DNA of 11,042 nucleotides, taken from a virus. Taxonomy: Duplodnaviria > Heunggongvirae > Uroviricota > Caudoviricetes. Below are positions 1,312-11,042 of this stretch, piece by piece. The position numbers and the translations under genes are program-made. The notes beneath the pieces were generated by a model. That model was given only the letters and a program-made list of their open reading frames with translations, was not told where the DNA came from and made no database searches. The stretch lies in IMG/VR virus record IMGVR_UViG_2740892442_000010; one strand, given 5' to 3'. The stretch's first letter is position 1, and every line of letters starts with the position of its first letter.

Positions 1312-2217
1312 TCAGAGCGGCGGTTCTGGTAGCGGCATCCAGTGGGTTACATTGCGGCTCTGCGTTTCGAAGAACTCCTCACCATTGCGGACAACATCAA
1401 AAAACTCACCGTCTCGATATTGCGCATAAAGAACGAATGCGCCATCACATAAAATAATTACGTGCTGACCATCATCTGGCATTCGCTCACTACAGCTTAT
1501 CCAACCATCCGGAGTTACCGGATAGTTGCCAGACAGCGCATTCTGCAACCGTTCCAGCTTCACGTATTCCTGAACTCTGTTTCCGTCGCACGTCTGAAGC
1601 CATTGAGCAGCCTTTTGCGCATCAGTGTGAAAGGCACAAGTGCGACCGTCATCAAATTGCATTTTGTAGAGGTCAGCAACCTGTTCAAACTCCGTTTGTG
1701 GCAAGTTGTAAGTTTGGCTTACAGGTTTGGCACCATGAAGCATGGCGGCACGACAGGCGTTCCAGCCTCTCACCTCTGCAATAGCTGCAACCGCATCAAC
1801 CGCATACATGCTAAGAGGGTTCGGCATTGGTTTTTCTTCCGGTACTACTGGCGATTGCTGTTTAACTTCTAAATCAGCAATTCTGTCAACTACGGCATCT
1901 ACTGCATCTGAAAAACTGAAACAGTTACTCCATTCCGGCCTGTTCCCGGTTGCTGCAAAATACATATCAGCTAAAGCATACTCAGCATGGTCACGCTCGT
2001 TGATGAGTTGCTCTTCGCTTTTCTCCAGTTCAGCAATACGCTTACTCCCATCCGAGATAACGCCCTCGTAATACTCACGCTGCTCGTTGAGTTTTGATTC
2101 AAGTTCACCGAACTTACGGACAAGATATTCAGCGTTTGTTTCGTTAACCTTTAAATCTCGTGGGATGCATTTACCTTTCAGAAATCCATCCATCTCAATT
2201 AGTGACATTTGTTTCAT
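1312..2217 (-). CDS. Ead/Ea22-like early-region protein with C-terminal DUF551-type domain
   Basis: Long minus-strand ORF. The C-terminus ...[12 protein letters not shown] matches the characteristic DUF551 ending found in lambdoid-phage ea-region proteins. Start assigned to the ATG at 2215-2217, which overlaps the upstream stop as ATGA (translational coupling); the ORF track begins at a GTG at 2235. Confidence 0.7.
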
Positions 2218-2701: not shown

Positions 2702-3199
2702 TTATTTAGCTAACTTTTTCCAGATCGCTGAAACGTATTTGGCTTGGTGAATGGCATCATCAAGCGCGTTGTGGCGAGTTCCTTTGAATGGCATATCTCG
2801 CTTAGGGTCGAATCCTATTACCTTCCCAAGTTCGACGATTGTTCTTACGTCGCGGTCATTCCACCACTGCCACGGAACTGGCTGCCCTGTCAGCGAATAA
2901 CTGTTGCGGAGAATAACGCAGTCAAATGATGCTCCATTCCCCCAAACCTGAACGAATTTGTGGTTGGCGTTCTTTATGATGAATTCAGATAACCATGAAA
3001 GAGCCGTTGAAAGCTCTTGAGTGTTGCTGGTTAGCGATTTTCTGGCTTCTTCACTCTGTTCCATCCACCATAAAATCGTTGAAGCGTCAGGACGCGCCCG
3101 ATATCGCATTGATGACTCAAGCGAGATATTTACCGAGAACTCTTCTCCTGTTTCTCCGGTATATGAATTTACGCCATACAGCAAACAGCGTGAGTTCAT
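2702..3199 (-). CDS. DEDD-type 3'-5' exonuclease-like protein (DnaQ/Rv2179c-like motifs II and III present); probably 5'-truncated at the deletion junction
   Basis: Translation contains WGNGASFD (Exo II-like, FD) and [13 protein letters not shown] (Exo III-like, H-x4-D), but no N-terminal D-x-E motif is visible. None of the candidate starts (3199, 3109, 3064) has a convincing RBS. The first about 11 codons are simply the reverse complement of the terminase-like fragment that begins near 3165. Confidence 0.45.
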
Positions 3200-3761
3200 C
3201 GACGCCGGGCATGACTATCCAGAGCGATGTTTTATGGCTGGTAACCAGCTTGGTAAGTCATTTACTGGTGCTGCTGAAGTCGCGTTTCACCTTACCGGGC
3301 GTTACGCGAACAAGCAACTGGTGATGATGGGGCTGAAGAAACCAGAAACACCTGAAGAGATGGAGATGGTACAGCAGGCTCAACAGCAGCCGCAGCAGCC
3401 ATCAGCAGAGCAAATTCAGGCGCAGGGTATCCTTCTGCAAGGTCAGGCTGAATTGCTCAAGGCAGAGAACCAACAGGCGCAGATTCAGGTTGAAGCCGCC
3501 AAGGTTGAAGCCCAAAACCAACTCAACGCCGCGAAGATTGCAGAAATCTTCAACAATATGGACCTCGACAAGCAGGCAGAACTGCGTGAGTACCTCAAGC
3601 TAGTAGGTCAATTCCAGCAACAGCGCAGCAAAGATGCTCGTGCTAACGCTGAGCTGCTTCTTAAAGATGCAGACCAGACTCATTCACAACGCATGGATTT
3701 CGCGAATCTTATGCGTCAAGTTCAAATCCCCTCCGGCGGAGTAGCCGAGACACCTCAATAA
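3021..3761 (+). pseudogene. Deletion-scar chimera: terminase large subunit N-terminal fragment (about 3165-3305) fused in frame to portal protein C-terminal fragment (about 3305-3761), P22-like
   Basis: Residues [47 protein letters not shown] carry a P-loop ([AG]-x4-G-K-[ST]: AGNQLGKS) typical of a terminase ATPase N-terminus. The sequence then switches abruptly to a Gln/Ala/Glu-rich helical segment (QQAQQQPQQ...[40 protein letters not shown]...) that I recall as the C-terminal barrel of the P22 portal gp1. The P22 order is 3-2-1-8-5 and scaffold/coat genes follow directly. An out-of-frame ATG at 3163-3165 (tatATGAATTTACG) suggests the native start was ATG-GAA-TTT (MEFTPY) with a 1-bp loss. 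Confidence 0.6.
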
Positions 3762-3774
3762 GAGAGAGTTAATC

Positions 3775-4686
3775 ATGGACCAAACCACCGACATTCAGGC
3801 TTCTGAAGAATTAACCCTGCCCGGCAATCATGCAGCGGCATCTGCTGATGGCTTAGTTGTCGATAATGCCAACGACAACGCAGGTCAGGAAGAAGGCTTC
3901 GAGATTGTCCTGAAAGACGATGAGAAACCAAAACAAGACCCGGCAACTAATGCTGAATTTGCCCGTCGCCGCATCGAACGCAAACGCCAGCGTGAGCTTG
4001 AGCAGCAGATGGAAGCGGTTAAGCGTGGAGAGTTGCCGGAGCACCTGCGGGTGAACCCTGAGTTACCAAAACAACCAGACCCTAACGATTATCTTTCCGA
4101 AGATGCACTGGCTAAGTACGACTATGACCAGAGCCGCGCACTGGCTGCCTTCCAGCAGGCAAACAGTGAATGGCAGATCAAGGCTATGGACGCACGAAGC
4201 CAGGCTGTCGCCGAGCAGGGTCGCAAAACTCAGGAGTTCACCCAGCAATCAGCGCAATACGTCGAGGCAGCCCGTAAGCACTACGACGCAGCGGAAAAGC
4301 TCAATATCCCTGACTATCAGGAGAAAGAGGATGCATTCATGCAACTGGTGCCGCCAGCAGTCGGTGCCGACATCATGCGCCTCTTCCCGGAGAAATCCGC
4401 TGCTCTCATGTATCACCTTGGTGCTAATCCTGAAAAAACACGCCAGTTGCTGGCGATGGACGGGCAATCCGCGCTGATTGAACTCACTCGACTGTCAGAA
4501 CGTTTAACTCTCAAGCCTCGAGCCAAGCCTGTTTCAGAAGCCCCGTTACCTGATGAACCAATTCAGGGACACGCTGTTGCTGCAAATATCTCTGCGATTG
4601 AAAAGCAGATGGAAGCGGCAGCAAACAAAAGGGATGTAGAGACGTACCGCAAGCTCAAGGCGCAACTGAATAAAGGAATTCGATAA
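3775..4686 (+). CDS. Phage scaffolding protein (P22 gp8-like), apparently intact, 303 aa
   Basis: RBS-like AGAGAGAG about 7 nt upstream of the ATG at 3775. Same length as P22 gp8, and the N-terminal region ([29 protein letters not shown]) and C-terminal basic coat-binding region ([15 protein letters not shown]) match my recollection of that protein. Stop overlaps the coat start as TAATG. Confidence 0.85.
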
Positions 4687-5732
4687 TGGCATTAAATGAA
4701 GGTCAACTGGTCACGTATGCTCTGGATGAAATCATCGAAACCGTCCAGAATCTGACGCCAATGGCGTCCAAAGTGACAAAATACACCCCTCCGGCAGAAT
4801 CCATGCGGCGTTCAAGCAACACCGTGTGGATGCCTGTTGAGCAGGAAGCGCCAACCCAGACTGGCTGGGATTTAACTGGCAACGCAACTGGGATTCTGGA
4901 ACTCTCCGTGAAATGCAACATGGGCGATCCGGATAACGATTTCTTCGAGCTTCGTGCAGATGACCTGCGTGATGAGCGTTCTTACCGTCGCCGCATCCAG
5001 GCATCCGCTAAAAAACTGGCGAATAACATTGAGTCAGCAATTGCCAAACAGGCAACTGAAATGGGCTCACTTGTTGTTCACGATACCCGCGCAATTGGTC
5101 CATCTACTGGCCTGTCTGGCTGGGATTTTGTGTCTGATGCAGAGCGCCTGATGTTCTCCCGCGAACTCAACCGCGACATGGGCATCAGTTACTTCCTGAA
5201 CCCTGACGATTACCGCAAAGCAGGCCGCAACCTGGTAGATGGTGACATCTTCGGTCGCGTTCCTGAAGAAGCGTATCGCAACGGTACTATTCAGCGTCAG
5301 ATTGCTGGCTTTGATGAAATTCTTCGCTCACCGAAACTTCCGGCAGTTACCAAGTCAACCGCTACTGGTGTAACTGTTTCTGGTGCGCAGAAGTTTAAGC
5401 CGCAGGCATACACCCTTGATACCGATGGTAACAAAGAGAACGTCGACAACCGTGTTGCAACGGTGACCGTATCCTCCACCACCGGATTTAAGCGCGGCGA
5501 CAAAATCAGTTTCACTGGTGTGAAATTCCTGTCTCAGATGGCGAAGAACGTGCTAACTGATGATGCGACTTTCTCAATCACCCGTGTGATCGATGGTACT
5601 CACATCGAAATCACGCCGAAACCGATTGCACTGGATGACGCGTCACTGACAAAAGAAGAGAAGGCTTACGCTAACGTAAACACCTCTCTTGCTGATACCA
5701 CTCCGGTAAACGTTCTGAACACCAGCCTATGA
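4686..5732 (+). CDS. Phage major coat protein (P22 gp5-like), 3'-truncated at 348 aa versus about 430 aa; likely nonfunctional remnant
   Basis: N-terminus [19 protein letters not shown]... and internal segments ([68 protein letters not shown]) match my recollection of the P22 coat protein. The ORF ends after ...[20 protein letters not shown], well short of full length, and the downstream P22 genes (4, 10, 26, 14, 7, 20, 16) are absent. Confidence 0.8.
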
Positions 5733-5823
5733 AAGAGCGATAAATAACGCTGCGAATGCCATCAGACCGCTGTTTGCTACTGAGGCAACACAGCAGTAAC
5801 GTATGGGAAATTGGATTCAATCG

Positions 5824-6213
5824 CTAACATTTTCTTTTTACTTTTCCAACAAAAGCTTTGGTTGAATCCATATTTCTATAACCGGAAATGGTTTTTGACA
5901 TTAAAACTGTTCCAGTAGGATGTATTACCCATGAGTCGATAACGCGTTGAGTTTCGCCATTCGCGCCGATTCCTATGATGGAGTTTTTAGACAATGCTTT
6001 GTAAGCCATGCCGCCCGCATCTGTCCCAGAATATGTGATGCTGGCATCTTCACCGTTTGTCTTAATGATGAATGTTCCACTAAAACCATCTTCTTCCGGA
6101 TGGAAATTATTTCGTTCTGAATAGCTTATTCCGCGCATATCTCCAACGACCCAGCACTCTGCTGTAGCCCCAAAAGATATGAATAAGAACATAGCAGTAA
6201 GAAATTGCTTCAC
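5824..6213 (-). CDS. Exported protein of unknown function with N-terminal signal peptide (moron-like cargo)
   Basis: Strong RBS AAGGAGG with 5-nt spacer before a GTG start at 6211-6213. N-terminus MKQFLTAMFLFISFGATA/ECW has a hydrophobic core and an A-x-A-type cleavage site. No recognisable catalytic motif. Divergent from the adjacent lipoprotein gene. Confidence 0.6.
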   Translation of the reverse strand: MKQFLTAMFLFISFGATAECWVVGDMRGISYSERNNFHPEEDGFSGTFIIKTNGEDASITYSGTDAGGMAYKALSKNSIIGIGANGETQRVIDSWVIHPTGTVLMSKTISGYRNMDSTKAFVGKVKRKC

Positions 6214-6330
6214 GCCAACCTCCTTAGTTTTGAGCAGGATACCATGAAAAAAGTAAACATCTTTTGCCTACTTCACATTTGAATGGTTTGTCATTAGGAT
6301 GTTTCCGGTTTTTTAAATATGGAAATTGAT

Positions 6331-6750
6331 ATGAAGAGGATTATTGGCGTCGTTGCTGGCGCTATATTGTTATCTGGGTGCGCAACTATTGTTGGTGACG
6401 AAACGCAGCTTGTGCAAGTGAACAGCAATCCTTCCGGTGCGAGCTTTAAGGTAAAAGACGAATCAGGCGTGATTGTTGCGCAAGGTAAGACCCCACAAGG
6501 AGTAACTCTTGCCAAGTCAGATGGTAGTTATTTTGGCAAAAAGAGCTACCAGATCACTATGGAAAAGGATGGGTACGAACCAGTTACCCTGCCAATCAAA
6601 GCCAATGCTAATGGCTGGTATATTGGTGGAAACCTTGTGTTTGGTGGGTTAATTGGTTGGCTTGCTGTAGATCCTTTTAATGGTGGGATGTATACCTTGA
6701 AGCCAAAAGAGGCAAACGCATCTCTTATACCATCAACAAAGCAAGACTAA
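6331..6750 (+). CDS. Lipoprotein (lipobox LLSGC) with PEGA-like beta domain and Gly-rich C-terminal segment
   Basis: MKRIIGVVAGAILLSG-C is a canonical signal II peptide with the lipobox Cys. PSGASFKVKDESGVIVAQGKTPQGVTL resembles the PEGA motif; the C-terminal segment GWYIGGNLVFGGLIGWLAVDPFNGGMY is Gly-zipper-like. An upstream in-frame ATG at 6319 is a possible alternative start but has no RBS. Followed by a strong terminator. Confidence 0.7.
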   Translation: MKRIIGVVAGAILLSGCATIVGDETQLVQVNSNPSGASFKVKDESGVIVAQGKTPQGVTLAKSDGSYFGKKSYQITMEKDGYEPVTLPIKANANGWYIGGNLVFGGLIGWLAVDPFNGGMYTLKPKEANASLIPSTKQD

Positions 6751-6758
6751 TAAATAGG

Positions 6759-6781
6759 ACCCACCTTCAGGTGGGTTTTTT
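6759..6781 (+). terminator. Rho-independent terminator (likely bidirectional) between the lipoprotein gene and mnt
   Basis: ACCCACC-TTCA-GGTGGGT (7-bp stem, 4-nt loop) followed by TTTTTT on the + strand, 9 nt after the lipoprotein stop. The last three codons of the convergent mnt ORF lie inside the 3' half of the stem. Confidence 0.65.
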
Positions 6782-7018
6782 GTACAAATCCTTCAGCGTA
6801 TCAAACACCATCTTCCTAACAAGTTCGGACTGCTCATCAGCGATGCGTTCTGCATCGTCTCGATAGTCTGAAATTTTGGATGGCTTTGATACAGCATCAG
6901 TCACTATCTGAACTAATTCTGAATTAAGAGAGCGGCCATTGGATTTGGCTCGCTGTTTTAGTTTTTCCTTTAATTCGTAAAGTAGCCGCAGATTAAATTG
7001 CGGGTCATCTCTTCCCAT
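6767..7018 (-). CDS. mnt: Mnt repressor (ribbon-helix-helix, Arc/MetJ family), P22 Mnt homolog, 83 aa
   Basis: Translation MGRDDPQFNLRLLYELKEKLKQRAKSNGRSLNSELVQIV...DAERIADEQSELVRKMVFDTLKDLYKKPT is near-colinear with P22 Mnt as I recall it (MARDDPHFNFRMPMEVREKLKFRAEANGRSMNSELLQIV...KKMVFDTLKDLYKKTT), with the same length and the RHH beta-strand FNLR motif. GAGG lies 8 nt upstream of the ATG at 7018. Confidence 0.85.
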   Translation of the reverse strand: MGRDDPQFNLRLLYELKEKLKQRAKSNGRSLNSELVQIVTDAVSKPSKISDYRDDAERIADEQSELVRKMVFDTLKDLYKKPT

Positions 7019-7081
7019 TCTTGATGCCTCGCTTTTGTGAGTGGAGCGGCATCTTATTATCTGCTGGTTGCATCCTCAATA

Positions 7082-7096
7082 AGACCACTGTGGTCT
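7082..7096. promoter_or_regulatory. Perfect 15-bp palindrome AGACCAC-T-GTGGTCT, candidate Mnt operator
   Basis: Exact inverted repeat 64 bp upstream of the mnt start codon. It resembles in style the symmetric P22 mnt operator half-sites (GTCCAC/GTGGAC type, recalled). A plausible leftward promoter for mnt (minus strand TTGAGG-17 nt-TAAGAT, + coordinates 7051-7079) sits immediately beside it. Confidence 0.5.
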
Positions 7097-7290
7097 CTTT
7101 ATTTGATTAATAATGCATCACTGCGGCCACGCTGCAGCGATTCCTTGTATCTGGAGCAAATTAAATGACAGATATTATAAATAGGAATTGTTATTTAATA
7201 ATATTTGAAAATGAAAATCATGGACGATAGGAATAAAAGTAGTACTTGTTATTTTTAAGTGACGCATTAAACGCATAAAGCATATGTCTG

Positions 7291-7319
7291 TTGATCAAGA
7301 TTCTTGCTTGTTGTAAAAT
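7291..7319 (+). promoter_or_regulatory. Candidate sigma70-type promoter upstream of the tailspike gene
   Basis: TTGATC (7291-7296), 17-nt spacer, TAAAAT (7314-7319); would give a leader of about 118 nt to the tailspike ATG. The region is AT-rich, so chance matches are likely. Confidence 0.25.
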
Positions 7320-7443
7320 AATTGTTTTGTTCATGTTGCATAGTTTTAAAGTGAATAGAAGATTATTTTTCAAAACAATTGCATCTTTGTCTGCAGTCAT
7401 TCCGTTTTCTTCAATATCTAAATTTTCAAACAGGATGACTAAT

Positions 7444-10176
7444 ATGCCTGATATAACTCCAAATGTTGTAATTGGGATGCCTTCTCAACTCTTCACTATG
7501 GCTCGTTCTTTTAAAGCCGTAGCTAATGGAAAAATTTATATCGGTAAAATTGACACTGACCCTGTAAATCCTGAAAACCAGATTCAGGTTTATGTAGAGA
7601 ATGAAGATGGTTCTCACGTTCCTGTTTCGCAACCAATCGTTATCAATGCTGCTGGATATCCTGTATATAACGGACAGATTGCCAAATTCGTTACTGTGAA
7701 AGGACACTCTATGGCTGTGTACGATGCTTATGGTACGCAGCAGTTCTATTTTCCGAATGTGCTGAAGTATGACCCGGATCAGTTACGGCAGCAATTAGAA
7801 GATCCTGATGGTGCTAAAAAATACCCTGAATTACAGATTGCACGATGGCGGGATGATAAAGACGTTCGCGGGTGGGGGGCGGATGACTCTGGGAATAGAG
7901 ATTCAACACAGGCTTTTCTTGACGCCGCATCTAGCGCAGGAAATAGTGGTTTGGTTCATGTGCCTTCTGGTGAGTTTATAGTTGATGCATCGAAAATAGA
8001 TATTTCACGCTTCTCCGGTGATGGTGTTCTAATCAGTAATGGTGTTCGCATTTCTGTTAATCCGCCGATGCAAAGTTTCTCCATTGGACAAAGAAAACTT
8101 GCGACCCTGAATTTTGGTGATGATATCAATGCGCCAACTATATATGCGAATGCACAAAATGCATTGCAGGGAATAGCTTGTGTAAGGCATGAAGGTATTG
8201 AGAAGGTTTTTATCACTCAACAGGTTGGAGGTTCTAACTGGGGAACGGACACCCTCACAAGGATCAGTGAGTGGCACTATACAAGCGATGGTTCAACTCT
8301 TTATGTTGTGACATTTACAGAGCCATTGCCTCTTGGTCACGGTTCAGATCTTTCTGCCACAATAGAGAACGGTGAACTATATCTGTTTACAACAACAATT
8401 GCTGAGACTGGTTCCTCTCTAGGAGGGAAGGGGTATTCAAAGACAAAATGGAAAGGGGCATCAACATCTGCTGAAGATATAACTCATTACCGAGTATTTG
8501 GTGAGCCGGGTGATAATAATCTGATTAACCTTGCGCAGCGGGCAAGTATTTGTGTATCTAATGATGGGCGATATGTCATATTAATTGCGACATCAAACGC
8601 TGGGACTGGCCGCTTTTTATACGTATATGATCGCAAAGAAGTGGAATCTTCTTCTAACCCAATGAAAGTTAGACCGATTAATGGTCCTGTTCCACTTGTC
8701 CGTGGTAAAGGTCAGTATGGTGCAACACTTCAGGGTATTACATCAGATAGCAGATATATTTACACAATTTGGGGTGGCGTTCCTGCAAGATGCGTAAGGA
8801 CAGTACAGATTTATGATATGGGTGGTACGCTAATACGTTCATTTCCTGTATCACTTGCCGCATCACTTTATACAGAGACTCAGTTAAATGGTTCTGACTC
8901 TAAAATCGGAGTTCCGGTTAGCTTTGAGCCTGAAGGGCTGGCAATAAGAGGTGATGAACTTGTCTGTGGTGCTATGGATGTATGGAAAAGCGCAGGGGAT
9001 GTTGTAAGCCATCGTGGTAAAAATTGGGTAAGTATTGTTACTGGTGATAACAAGGGAAATCTTCCGACAAACAGGTCTTATTGGTTAAAAACATCGCTTG
9101 CAGCGACAAGTGGTGAATGGGATTCAGGCGCAACATATAAATCAGGTGATTATACTCGCAGAAATAAGCATCTGTTTGGAATAGCAAACCTGTCTGATAT
9201 TCTTGGCAACCATCCAGTGCATGGTGCAGAATCCGATCCGTATACCGGAACCGCGCATCAATATTATGCTGGAACTGATATCGCCTTTAACCGTGAGCAC
9301 GGTTCATTTACTATTGCGATATTTGACGAAGCCATTGGAGAGTATACCAAATCCCTCGAGTTGAATTATGGAAATAACCTTAACCTGTTTGATACAGATT
9401 ACGGACATGACAATAATTCATGGGTAAGTACGAAAGCAGTATTCGACTCAAACTTTCGAGGTATGCAGTTCCGTTCTAAAGATGGGAATACTGCGGGTGG
9501 TGCTTATATTGATATCCATGCTGCTGATTGTCCATCTGCGGCTGGTGAGTTGATACTTGCCTCTACAGATGGAGGTGTCGTCAGACTTAAGCAGGGGAAT
9601 GTAACAGTATTTTCTGCGACTAAAGATACTACATCGACATGGGCGACGACGACATTAAGGCCAACAACTGATAACCAGGTATCACTTGGAAGGTCCGTTA
9701 ACCGCTTTTCTCAGGTCTACGCAGGGACTGCAACTATAAATACATCTGATGCAACAGAGAAAACGGAAGTCAGAACTCTTTCCGATAAAGAGCAGGCGGT
9801 TGGGTTAGCTCTTGTTGATGAAATTGGTTTTTATCAATGGCTTGATAGTGTAAAAAATAAGGGAGCTGATGCCAGACTTCATGCCGGACTTACGGTGCAA
9901 CGGGCAATGGAAATATTCAGAGAGAATGGACTTGATCCATTTAAATACGGAGCGATCTGCTATGACAGATGGGATGCATATACAGATACAGATCCAGCTG
10001 TTTATGATGATGAAGGTAACCTTGTTCGTGAGGCTATAACTATTACGCATGAAGCAGGAGAACGCTATGCATTCAGAAATGATGAATTACAGTATCTAAT
10101 GATTGCTGCATTAGGTATACGTCAGAAAAATATTATAAAGAGGATTGAAGAACTGGAAAATAAGCTTGCAAATTAA
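7444..10176 (+). CDS. Phage tailspike protein, mosaic: P22-type N-terminal head-binding domain, divergent receptor-binding/enzymatic body, C-terminal intramolecular-chaperone-like (peptidase S74-type) domain; 910 aa
   Basis: Start set at the ATG at 7444, with AGGA 8 nt upstream; the ORF track's upstream extension from 7291 is AT-rich and non-protein-like. The first about 115 aa ([59 protein letters not shown]...NVLKYDPDQ) closely match the P22 gp9 head-binding domain ([34 protein letters not shown]..., recalled), and similarity ends right after KYDPDQ. The C-terminal about 143 aa from Ser at 9745-9747 ([10 protein letters not shown]...) fit the S-D-x-x-x-K pattern of autocleaving chaperone domains. 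Confidence 0.85.
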
Positions 10177-10331: not shown

Positions 10332-11042
10332 TTATTGTTTTTCTTTTGTTAGGTTCCAATATTCACTTGTGGTTTTTATGGAGTCCTTATTAGGCTTTAC
10401 ATAAGGTTTATGTATGGAGAGATGAGGTCTTTCCCAGGCAATGTCTTTTTTTATTACTCTTGCTGGAACTCCTGCTGCAATAGAGTTATTTGGGACGTGT
10501 CCTTTAACAACAGCTGCATAGCCAATAACACTACCACTTTCGATTTCTGCACCACCAAGTATTGCCGCTCGGCGGCCAACCCAGACATGACTTCCAATAT
10601 AAATAGATTTTGGCATATTTATACGTTCACCTGTTACTACACTAAAAATAGGGTGGGAGTCATCAGTTTTAACTTCATTTCCACTTGAAAACATGCAGTC
10701 ATCGCCAATAATTATGCTTGAGTTTTCTACAGCAGAAATCATACCTTTACCAGTGCAAGTGAAATCAGAGCCTATTTTTATGGAGGAATTCTCACCCACT
10801 CTTATATGGGCTTGTATACCTTTGTTTGCGATATGGCATGGGCCAATTTCAAAATACCCATTGTTGCAGTCAAAATATATCTCAAAATATTTTAATGATG
10901 CATCTTTATGAATGATAAGTTTATTATTAGATCCTCTAAACTGAATTAGTTTGACGTCACAACTACCTTCGTACTGGATCTCATTACCCATTTCATCAGA
11001 ATACTTCTCTGCTTTTGTTAAAACAACTTTTCTAATTTTCAT
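10332..11042 (-). CDS. Hexapeptide-repeat (left-handed beta-helix) acetyltransferase; start coincides with the window edge, so the 5' end may extend beyond
   Basis: The C-terminal half IGSHVWVGRRAAILGGAEIESGSVIGYAAVVKGHVPNNSIAAGVPARVIKK shows the [LIV]-G-x4 hexapeptide periodicity and the AAGVPARVI ending typical of the LacA/Maa/NodL/WbbJ-like O-acetyltransferase family. Visibly AT-rich coding sequence. The ATG at 11040-11042 is the last codon in the window. Confidence 0.75.
   Translation of the reverse strand: MKIRKVVLTKAEKYSDEMGNEIQYEGSCDVKLIQFRGSNNKLIIHKDASLKYFEIYFDCNNGYFEIGPCHIANKGIQAHIRVGENSSIKIGSDFTCTGKGMISAVENSSIIIGDDCMFSSGNEVKTDDSHPIFSVVTGERINMPKSIYIGSHVWVGRRAAILGGAEIESGSVIGYAAVVKGHVPNNSIAAGVPARVIKKDIAWERPHLSIHKPYVKPNKDSIKTTSEYWNLTKEKQ

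Follow-up and report, generated by a model that had tools for sequence, protein, structure and literature searches.

Two separate cargo genes for predicted envelope proteins, one of them a Hex-family member, in the gene 16-mnt slot of a decayed P22-like prophage of Escherichia coli

The window analysed here, a stretch of 11,042 nucleotides (nt) deposited as the virus record IMGVR_UViG_2740892442_000010, covers the remnant of a P22-like prophage of Escherichia coli, and the present work deals with two divergent open reading frames (ORFs) in it, the leftward ORF A and the rightward ORF B. A sequence-only reading had placed them at the position of sieA of phage P22 and had taken them for a pair of envelope proteins that replaced the virion genes 4 to 16 and served superinfection exclusion or defence. 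Both ORFs are real and intact; the position was right, and ORF A even uses the leader of sieA, but several other points have to be drawn differently. With a probability of about 60%, we believe that ORF A and ORF B are two separate morons, most likely expressed in the lysogen, which reside in the slot between gene 16 and mnt of a P22-like prophage whose virion genes were mostly lost later. ORF A adds to the Hex family a member that sits at another place in the genome, while ORF B is a phage moron belonging to a large uncharacterised lipoprotein family.

The prophage is flanked by a disrupted integrase gene and thrS, and the window corresponds to the chromosome of E. coli TUM10008 save for one base. 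From left to right, the remnant contains a terminase fragment, an intact scaffold gene, a cut coat gene, ORF A, ORF B, mnt, a tailspike gene and an acyltransferase gene. Similarity to intact prophages begins precisely at position 5717, 83 nt upstream of the gp16 stop codon of the E. coli A35 prophage, which points to a deletion that joined coat codon ~344 to the terminal 83 nt of the gene 16 homologue; in JEP4 and phiv205-1, 81 nt of the gene 16 3' end are kept. In the intact A35 prophage, the homologues of gp7-gp20-gp16 are followed by ORF A (leftward), ORF B (rightward), mnt, arc, ant and the tailspike gene. Such a layout indicates that both ORFs are native cargo between gene 16 and mnt, and that genes 4 to 16 were not replaced by them but removed by the deletion. 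The G+C content is ~0.50-0.53 in the structural genes vs 0.41-0.44 in the region of ORF A and ORF B. Selection for a function useful to the host had been read from the survival of the two genes in a gutted prophage; this is weak evidence, since the scaffold, mnt and tailspike genes were kept too.

In P22, sieA lies on the same strand as ORF A and begins 22 nt past gene 16, with a promoter annotated just upstream in the P22 record; for sieA and ORF A together, the distance from gene 16 to the leftward gene is 22-24 nt. Besides position and strand, ORF A has in common with sieA a near-identical leader, the Shine-Dalgarno sequence and the GTG start codon, which in ORF A stands 5 nt past AAGGAGG. 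We aligned the leaders of P22 sieA, ORF A, Emek orf129 (an ORF A orthologue), epsilon34 gp14 (an hkcB homologue) and a 62-codon ORF of JEP4 and phiv205-1. The alignment has 36 invariant columns, and the block TGGTATCCTG..CAAAACTAAGGAGGTTGG.GTG is unchanged in all five leaders. At least four different leftward cargo genes of P22-like phages have a leader of ~35 invariant nt in common (sieA, ORF A with its likeness to Hex, a gene resembling hkcB and a small membrane ORF), and the other edge of the cassette, the 3' end of gene 16, is also conserved. Since both edges are conserved, these alignments argue that cargo coding sequences are swapped precisely behind one expression signal, and that ORF A occupies the place of the sieA coding sequence.

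The two genes mostly travel apart. Of the 5426 complete E. coli genomes searched, 147 had a close copy of ORF A and 124 one of ORF B, while the adjacent pair was present in 45. Emek and ST-35 have ORF A with other rightward genes, including one for a Panacea-domain protein; epsilon34, Gally and vB_EcoP-720R6 have ORF B with other leftward genes. The mosaic boundaries fall at window position 6244 for the ORF A module and 6215 for the ORF B module. Such a pattern speaks for separate modules that recombine independently and not for one system. Overall, both ORFs are mobile prophage cargo, as had been supposed, being found in varied phages and prophages. The same pair does recur in 45 genomes, but its genes recombine independently, and the idea of a functional pair has to be given up.

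ORF A and Hex of phage 434 both match PHROG 2651, with E 6e-61 and E 1e-58, respectively, and BLASTP aligned the two proteins end to end (residues 1-129) with 27% identity and E 1e-12. A profile search collected 115 relatives (90% clustering) that bridge the ORF A type of 129 amino acids (aa) and the Hex type of 135 aa. C20, W21, G28, D42, W95 and G123 are invariant in the family and C129 is nearly so; exactly two cysteines were counted in the mature part of 78 of 79 members. The N-terminus of ORF A, MKQFLTAMFLFISFGATA ahead of ECW, is a predicted type I signal peptide and the only hydrophobic segment of the protein. The signal peptides of relatives differ yet are equivalent, ending in A/S-x-A/S ahead of x-C-W. 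In 55 of the 79 members, the first cysteine is preceded by D, N or E, in keeping with cleavage by signal peptidase I and not with a lipobox. The AlphaFold2 model, with a predicted local distance difference test score (pLDDT) of 90 and >95 over most of the mature part, is an eight-stranded up-and-down beta-barrel; the conserved cysteines lie in its first and last strands and may form a disulfide. The ratio of nonsynonymous to synonymous substitution rates (dN/dS) is 0.15-0.21 in the most divergent pairs, i.e., the gene is under purifying selection.

Hex of 434 and gp38 of Sf6 resemble ORF A in belonging to PHROG 2651, in having a signal peptide followed by x-C-W and the C-terminal STKxFVGxVxxxC, and in being of similar size. 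They differ in location: hex stands directly after cI in the PRM operon, whereas ORF A follows the sieA leader in the slot between gene 16 and mnt, and the 129-aa ORF A subgroup shares 25-30% identity with that of Hex. Hex-type genes overlap the end of cI, a 128-aa relative of ORF A (47-50% identity) sits convergent to cI, and an Aeromonas relative is at the edge of an integrase island. In the genomes compared, members of this family always occupy immunity or cargo positions.

In phage 434, hex (2001-2405 of the compared stretch) lies downstream of cI, with which it is co-transcribed (PMC3564112), and is annotated as 'repressor protection protein'. Its name refers to 'heterologous exclusion': P22 is excluded by Salmonella that carries lambda imm434 as a prophage, but not when hex is mutated (PMC3564112, citing Susskind and Botstein 1980). 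A stable fragment, 'sHex', starts at Glu43 of the authors' frame, and full-length Hex is lethal when overexpressed (PMC3564112). By our count on the published sequence and its translation, Glu43 is the first residue past the predicted cleavage site between ANS and ECW. Hex is thus probably a secreted periplasmic protein. The start of sHex at the cleavage site, the lethality of the full-length protein and the conservation of signal peptide and cysteine pair suggest that the ORF A/Hex family as a whole is exported, which favours an exclusion role of ORF A at the level of the envelope.

ORF B begins with MKRIIGVVAGAILLSGC (an alternative ATG lies at 6319) and has the lipobox LSGC at residues 14-17. 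Because of the Ala at +2, the protein is predicted to be sorted by the Lol system to the outer membrane. Envelope targeting, which had been proposed for both products, is thus predicted from a type I signal peptide in ORF A and from a lipobox in ORF B. ORF B matches PHROG 6823 (E 6e-86), a family of unassigned function. A word-based search gave 728 relatives; the lipobox and CATIVGD are conserved across more than 100 family members. The most conserved part of the family is the glycine-rich tail at residues 94-123, in which the segment NGWYIGGN..FGG.IGW..VDPFNGGMYTL is invariant or nearly so. A profile search extended the family to 5599 clusters (50% identity) at E <= 1e-3 and to 2094 at E <= 1e-10, named, where at all, 'hypothetical' or 'PEGA domain-containing' (e.g., in Zoogloea). 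From this search, ORF B appears to derive from a very large bacterial lipoprotein family of no known function. Copies of the gene differ at 18-26 synonymous vs 0-4 non-synonymous sites (dN/dS 0.03-0.07), again a sign of purifying selection.

In the AlphaFold2 model of ORF B (pLDDT 81), residues 25-93 form a very confident transthyretin/CnaB-type sandwich, followed by a low-confidence hydrophobic glycine-rich helix (95-113) and a confident hairpin (121-131). Beside its signal peptide, ORF B has this one glycine-rich helix of moderate hydrophobicity. Of Pfam and NCBIfam entries, only PEGA and, weakly, LEPBI_I2678 were hit. The PEGA-like motif of the sequence-only reading stands halfway: the match is real, reaching E <= 0.1 in 20 of 71 relatives, and the predicted fold is compatible with it, but ORF B scored 17.6 bits against PF08308, under the gathering cut-off of 20.8. 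A profile search of PDB sequences gave marginal Ig-like repeats only, and the useful yield of a fold search in BFVD was one unnamed relative.

Members of the ORF B family occur in three contexts, namely the sieA slot of P22-like prophages, siphovirus prophages and ordinary chromosomal loci. In siphovirus prophages, the tail chaperone gene and the tape measure gene flank relatives of 68-71% identity; this interval is the slot of the HK97 exclusion moron gp15. Such a distribution implies that phages have captured the family repeatedly beside genome-delivery genes. HK97-like E. coli prophages with an ORF B relative also bear a porin gene (Porin_1/Porin_4) between the minor tail genes M and L; its coordinates in the compared prophages are 10261-11424 (two) and 10270-11343 (the third).

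Transcription of ORF B can be followed in Gally, a prophage of E. coli LF82, whose gene GALLYPH_14 encodes a 100% identical protein. The values come from published RNA sequencing of LF82 (S1 and S4 tables of PMC9928086) and are given as log2(fpkm+5), with fpkm for fragments per kilobase per million mapped reads. GALLYPH_14 stood at 6.2 / 4.8 in lysogeny broth (LB) overnight, at 9.8-10.5 in the columns for B1/B6 cultures, presumably the cultures in Dulbecco's modified Eagle medium (DMEM) named in the S1 legend, and in macrophages at 11.0 after 1 h and 9.4-9.5 after 6 h. The adjoining injection-protein genes of Gally remained at ~2.3-4.2 throughout. From LB to macrophages at 6 h, the log2 fold change was 3.84 (14-fold; q 1.4e-31). 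An identical copy of ORF B is thus transcribed in a lysogen while adjoining late genes are silent; GALLYPH_14 and the divergent leftward gene are transcribed autonomously and in a condition-dependent manner. Since similarity between Gally and the window begins only at 6321, the promoter regions differ, and this result would transfer to the ORF B gene but not necessarily to the promoter in the window.

As to the mode of action, ORF A would have come into the sieA cassette by a precise swap of coding sequence, and its product would be a Sec-exported barrel acting in the periplasm against incoming phages, at genome delivery. The likeliest target would be the ejection-protein conduit, which is also the target of SieA (PMC10883804). 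Because ORF A belongs to the Hex family, stands in the sieA cassette and bears export signals, we give an even chance to the proposal that ORF A excludes heterologous P22-like or lambdoid phages at the periplasmic genome-delivery step. ORF B would be anchored in the outer membrane, where its glycine-rich helix could insert into or assemble at the inner leaflet, and the protein probably alters the periplasmic face of this membrane. That it thereby blocks phage entry or hinders genome delivery is a tentative suggestion, with odds well below even; the outcome might instead be better envelope fitness of the host. With 68-71% identical copies in podovirus and siphovirus prophages of different hosts, ORF B would probably act on a conserved component of the host and not on one receptor, and a single receptor is also unlikely because ORF B occurs in phages with unrelated receptors. 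From the initial idea of superinfection-exclusion cargo, we thus retain the position, the export signals and the moron character, and drop the functional pair and the replacement of virion genes.

A number of observations weigh against our reading. Relatives of ORF B also reside at ordinary chromosomal loci of Enterobacter (81% identity) and other bacteria, and the family runs to thousands of clusters. PADLOC defence models gave no match for ORF A, ORF B or Mnt, and fold searches with ORF A and ORF B returned generic barrels and sandwiches only. BLASTP against SieA of type A, that of P22, aligned just short spurious segments, at E 1.2 with ORF A and E 0.037 with ORF B. A strict sigma-70 scan of positions 5600-7300 found no promoter on the ORF A strand, the candidate promoter of ORF B being the sole promoter-like site, so that promoter activity for ORF A is inferred solely from homology to the sieA leader. 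ORF A of the window carries G113R (5875-5877; SGYRNMD vs SGYGNMD in the four close relatives compared). Gally has been called moron-free on a 5-fold cut-off in LB, with GALLYPH_14 3.3-fold over background (PMC9928086). Finally, the sole mechanistic study of Hex proposed a cytoplasmic role, in which Hex shields the repressor from RecA-stimulated cleavage (PMC3564112). Two further details belong beside these points. Position 113 is variable in the Hex subgroup. GALLYPH_13 and GALLYPH_14 are far above the neighbouring late genes in B1/B6 cultures and macrophages and are under the cut-off only in LB overnight.

Among the alternatives, the one that fares best takes ORF B, and possibly ORF A, for lysogenic-conversion factors serving envelope fitness of the host (stress, serum, intracellular survival), like Bor of lambda. 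The ORF B family is large, bacterial and also present outside prophages, including close relatives at non-prophage Enterobacter loci, which would fit a role in host fitness. The 14-fold rise of GALLYPH_14 in macrophages over stationary phase in LB points the same way, as do its high level in B1/B6 cultures and the porin morons in prophages that bear ORF B relatives. The rise may, however, reflect growth phase and not the host environment. Moreover, independent captures took the family into two slots, and the type occupants of these, SieA and HK97 gp15, are proven blockers of DNA entry, although this is a weak argument, as non-defence cargo is found in moron slots too. Overall, a fitness role is a real possibility, albeit an unlikely one.

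Another alternative would transfer the published model of Hex to ORF A, which would then be a cytoplasmic protector of the repressor against RecA-stimulated autocleavage and would stabilise lysogeny. In favour of this, deletion of hex is reported to raise spontaneous induction ~30-fold in a recA-dependent manner, and in vitro a Hex fragment kept the repressors of 434 and P22 from being cleaved (PMC3564112). Nevertheless, a cytoplasmic anti-RecA mechanism fits badly with a periplasmic Hex, and the sequence features of the family argue otherwise, every member having a signal peptide, an A-x-A-type site and two conserved cysteines. The fragment described begins exactly at the predicted signal-peptidase site, the full-length protein is toxic on overexpression, ORF A is unlinked to a repressor gene and stands in the sieA cassette, and no complete lytic gene set is left in the window to repress. 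For ORF A, then, we find this mechanism improbable and return to the exported, envelope-level role.

One might also suppose that in this particular strain the two genes are no longer expressed and have stayed intact in a dead prophage for lack of time only. Heavy decay (IS1 in the integrase gene, a mere fragment of the terminase gene, a coat gene cut short, loss of genes 4 to 16) and the private G113R in ORF A agree with this. Against it, the ORFs, leader, ribosome-binding site and terminator are all intact and match their counterparts in intact prophages at 99-100% identity, and purifying selection acts on both families; the supposition concerns the window copy only and has, in our view, a small probability. 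Lastly, an obligate two-component system, e.g., an effector with its partner or immunity protein, might be seen in two adjacent genes that diverge around a 117-bp control region, are both predicted to be envelope-targeted and recur identically arranged in 45 E. coli genomes, but it was rejected as very improbable on the co-occurrence counts and mosaic boundaries given above, which fall at the start codon of the leftward gene, as well as on the different neighbours of each gene in Emek, ST-35, epsilon34, Gally and 720R6 and the lone ORF B relatives in siphovirus prophages and chromosomes.

Our preferred reading, that of two separate morons, can be set against known systems. Expressed by the prophage, SieA acts through the ejection proteins to stop DNA entry (PMC10883804). 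It has several predicted transmembrane helices (PMC10883804) and has been called membrane-bound (PMC3594210), whereas ORF A is a predicted soluble periplasmic barrel and ORF B a predicted lipoprotein. Like ORF B, gp15 of HK97 appears to derive from a bacterial envelope protein family, having been recruited from the YebO family (PMC3594210); it is, however, a small inner-membrane protein without homology to ORF B, a 139-aa predicted outer-membrane lipoprotein. Llp of T5, Cor of phi80 and N15, and ORF B are all small lipoproteins encoded by phages, with the inner side of the outer membrane as their actual or predicted site of action. The likeness drawn earlier ends there, as no homology was found: the match of ORF B to the Cor family phrog_1119 (E 0.003) covers residues 1-20 only, i.e., the signal peptide, and Cor and Llp were absent from its BFVD fold matches, many of which are nameless. 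PEGA and transthyretin-like (carboxypeptidase regulatory-like) domains are without the near-invariant glycine-rich C-terminal segment that defines ORF B. The lysozyme inhibitors MliC/PliC, of which MliC is a periplasmic barrel, for ORF A and the glycine-zipper outer-membrane lipoprotein SlyB of E. coli for ORF B were likewise rejected, with hhalign probabilities of 1-3% over signal peptides only. ORF A had no match in Pfam or NCBIfam and none in a profile search of PDB sequences, and our literature search found no study of ORF A-type proteins or of ORF B.

Table 1. Features of the gene 16-mnt slot and its borders in the window (PGAP, Prokaryotic Genome Annotation Pipeline; SD, Shine-Dalgarno sequence).
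Feature	Position	Strand	Remarks
Truncated P22-type coat gene	4686..5716	+	Pfam P22_CoatProtein profile positions 1-344 of 423; PGAP pseudogene, C-terminus missing
Gene 16 (DNA ejection protein) homologue, last 83 nt	5717..5799	+	Right edge of deletion, left anchor of cargo cassette
ORF A, 129 aa, Hex family (phrog_2651)	5824..6213	-	Predicted signal peptide codons 1-18 (6160-6213); mature E-C-W...Cys129
sieA-type leader of ORF A	6211..6249	-	Block TGGTATCCTG..CAAAACTAAGGAGGTTGG.GTG; SD AAGGAGG 6219-6225; GTG start 6211-6213
Candidate -10 hexamer TTTCAT in ORF A leader	6244-6249	-	By likeness to sieA leader
Candidate sigma-70 promoter for ORF B	6272..6300	+	TTCACA, 17 nt spacer, TAGGAT; 9/12 consensus positions, consensus match only
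ORF B, 139-aa predicted lipoprotein (phrog_6823)	6331..6750	+	Lipobox LSGC 6370-6381; predicted sandwich residues 25-93 (6403-6609)
ORF B near-invariant glycine-rich segment and hairpin	residues 94-131 (6610-6723)	+	Family alignment, AlphaFold2
Bidirectional intrinsic terminator closing ORF B	6759..6782	both	9-bp G+C-rich hairpin 6759-6776, then U6 (plus strand)
mnt repressor gene (Arc/Mnt family), right neighbour of slot	6767..7018	-	Pfam Arc 5e-20, Repressor_Mnt 2e-17

The terminator after ORF B is as strong as had been stated, with -14.5 kcal/mol for the hairpin and U tract and z = -3.1. It also makes a hairpin on the minus strand, overlapping the end of mnt, and an equivalent terminator is annotated in phage epsilon34. 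The lesions of the prophage are several and independent: IS1 lies inside the integrase gene, just left of the window, the terminase fragment is contained in a chimeric ORF at 3021-3761, and the coat gene is truncated. Both arc and ant are missing between mnt and the tailspike gene, as they are in Gally. The tailspike has its PGAP start near 7444, within a longest ORF of 7291-10176, and a C-terminal endosialidase-chaperone (Peptidase_S74) domain; it is followed by a hexapeptide acyltransferase gene (10332-11042, minus strand). The single difference from the TUM10008 record is one G in a short G run (GG vs GGG, window ~304-307), probably a strain or sequencing difference.

Other occupants of the gene 16-mnt slot also deserve a comment. 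In JEP4 (~1615-1810, minus strand of the compared stretch) and phiv205-1, an unannotated ORF of ~62 codons stands behind the sieA-type leader. It begins with VKKKFVNVAKCAIFIFFMTFYGF, apparently has two hydrophobic segments and is possibly a small membrane exclusion protein overlooked by annotation. Where ORF A occurs without ORF B (E. coli PA45B, 3258-3707; Emek, 4366-5239), its rightward neighbour encodes a Panacea-domain protein and is followed by another ORF, with genes for a ClpP-like protease and Arc beyond. Such a neighbourhood suggests toxin-antitoxin or defence cargo in this slot.

Our results give two 'hypothetical' proteins, each present in ~2-3% of complete E. coli genomes, a specific testable hypothesis, and they draw attention, through ORF B, to a very large unstudied family of bacterial lipoproteins. 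The interval between gene 16 and mnt of P22-like phages is a cassette site and, as such, a handy place to find new exclusion functions. If Hex is periplasmic, its long-known exclusion phenotype needs a new explanation. It is tempting to go further and suppose that temperate enterobacterial phages possess one more, so far overlooked, layer of exclusion, located in periplasm and outer membrane, where secreted Hex barrels would intercept the trans-periplasmic ejection machinery of incoming phages and members of the ORF B family would act as entry blockers. This is a speculation that we hold to be rather a long shot. Were it true, the cytoplasmic RecA model published for Hex would have to be revised, and the ORF B family would be a new and widespread class of entry blockers on the inner side of the outer membrane, directed against podoviruses and siphoviruses, recruited from housekeeping lipoproteins of bacteria.

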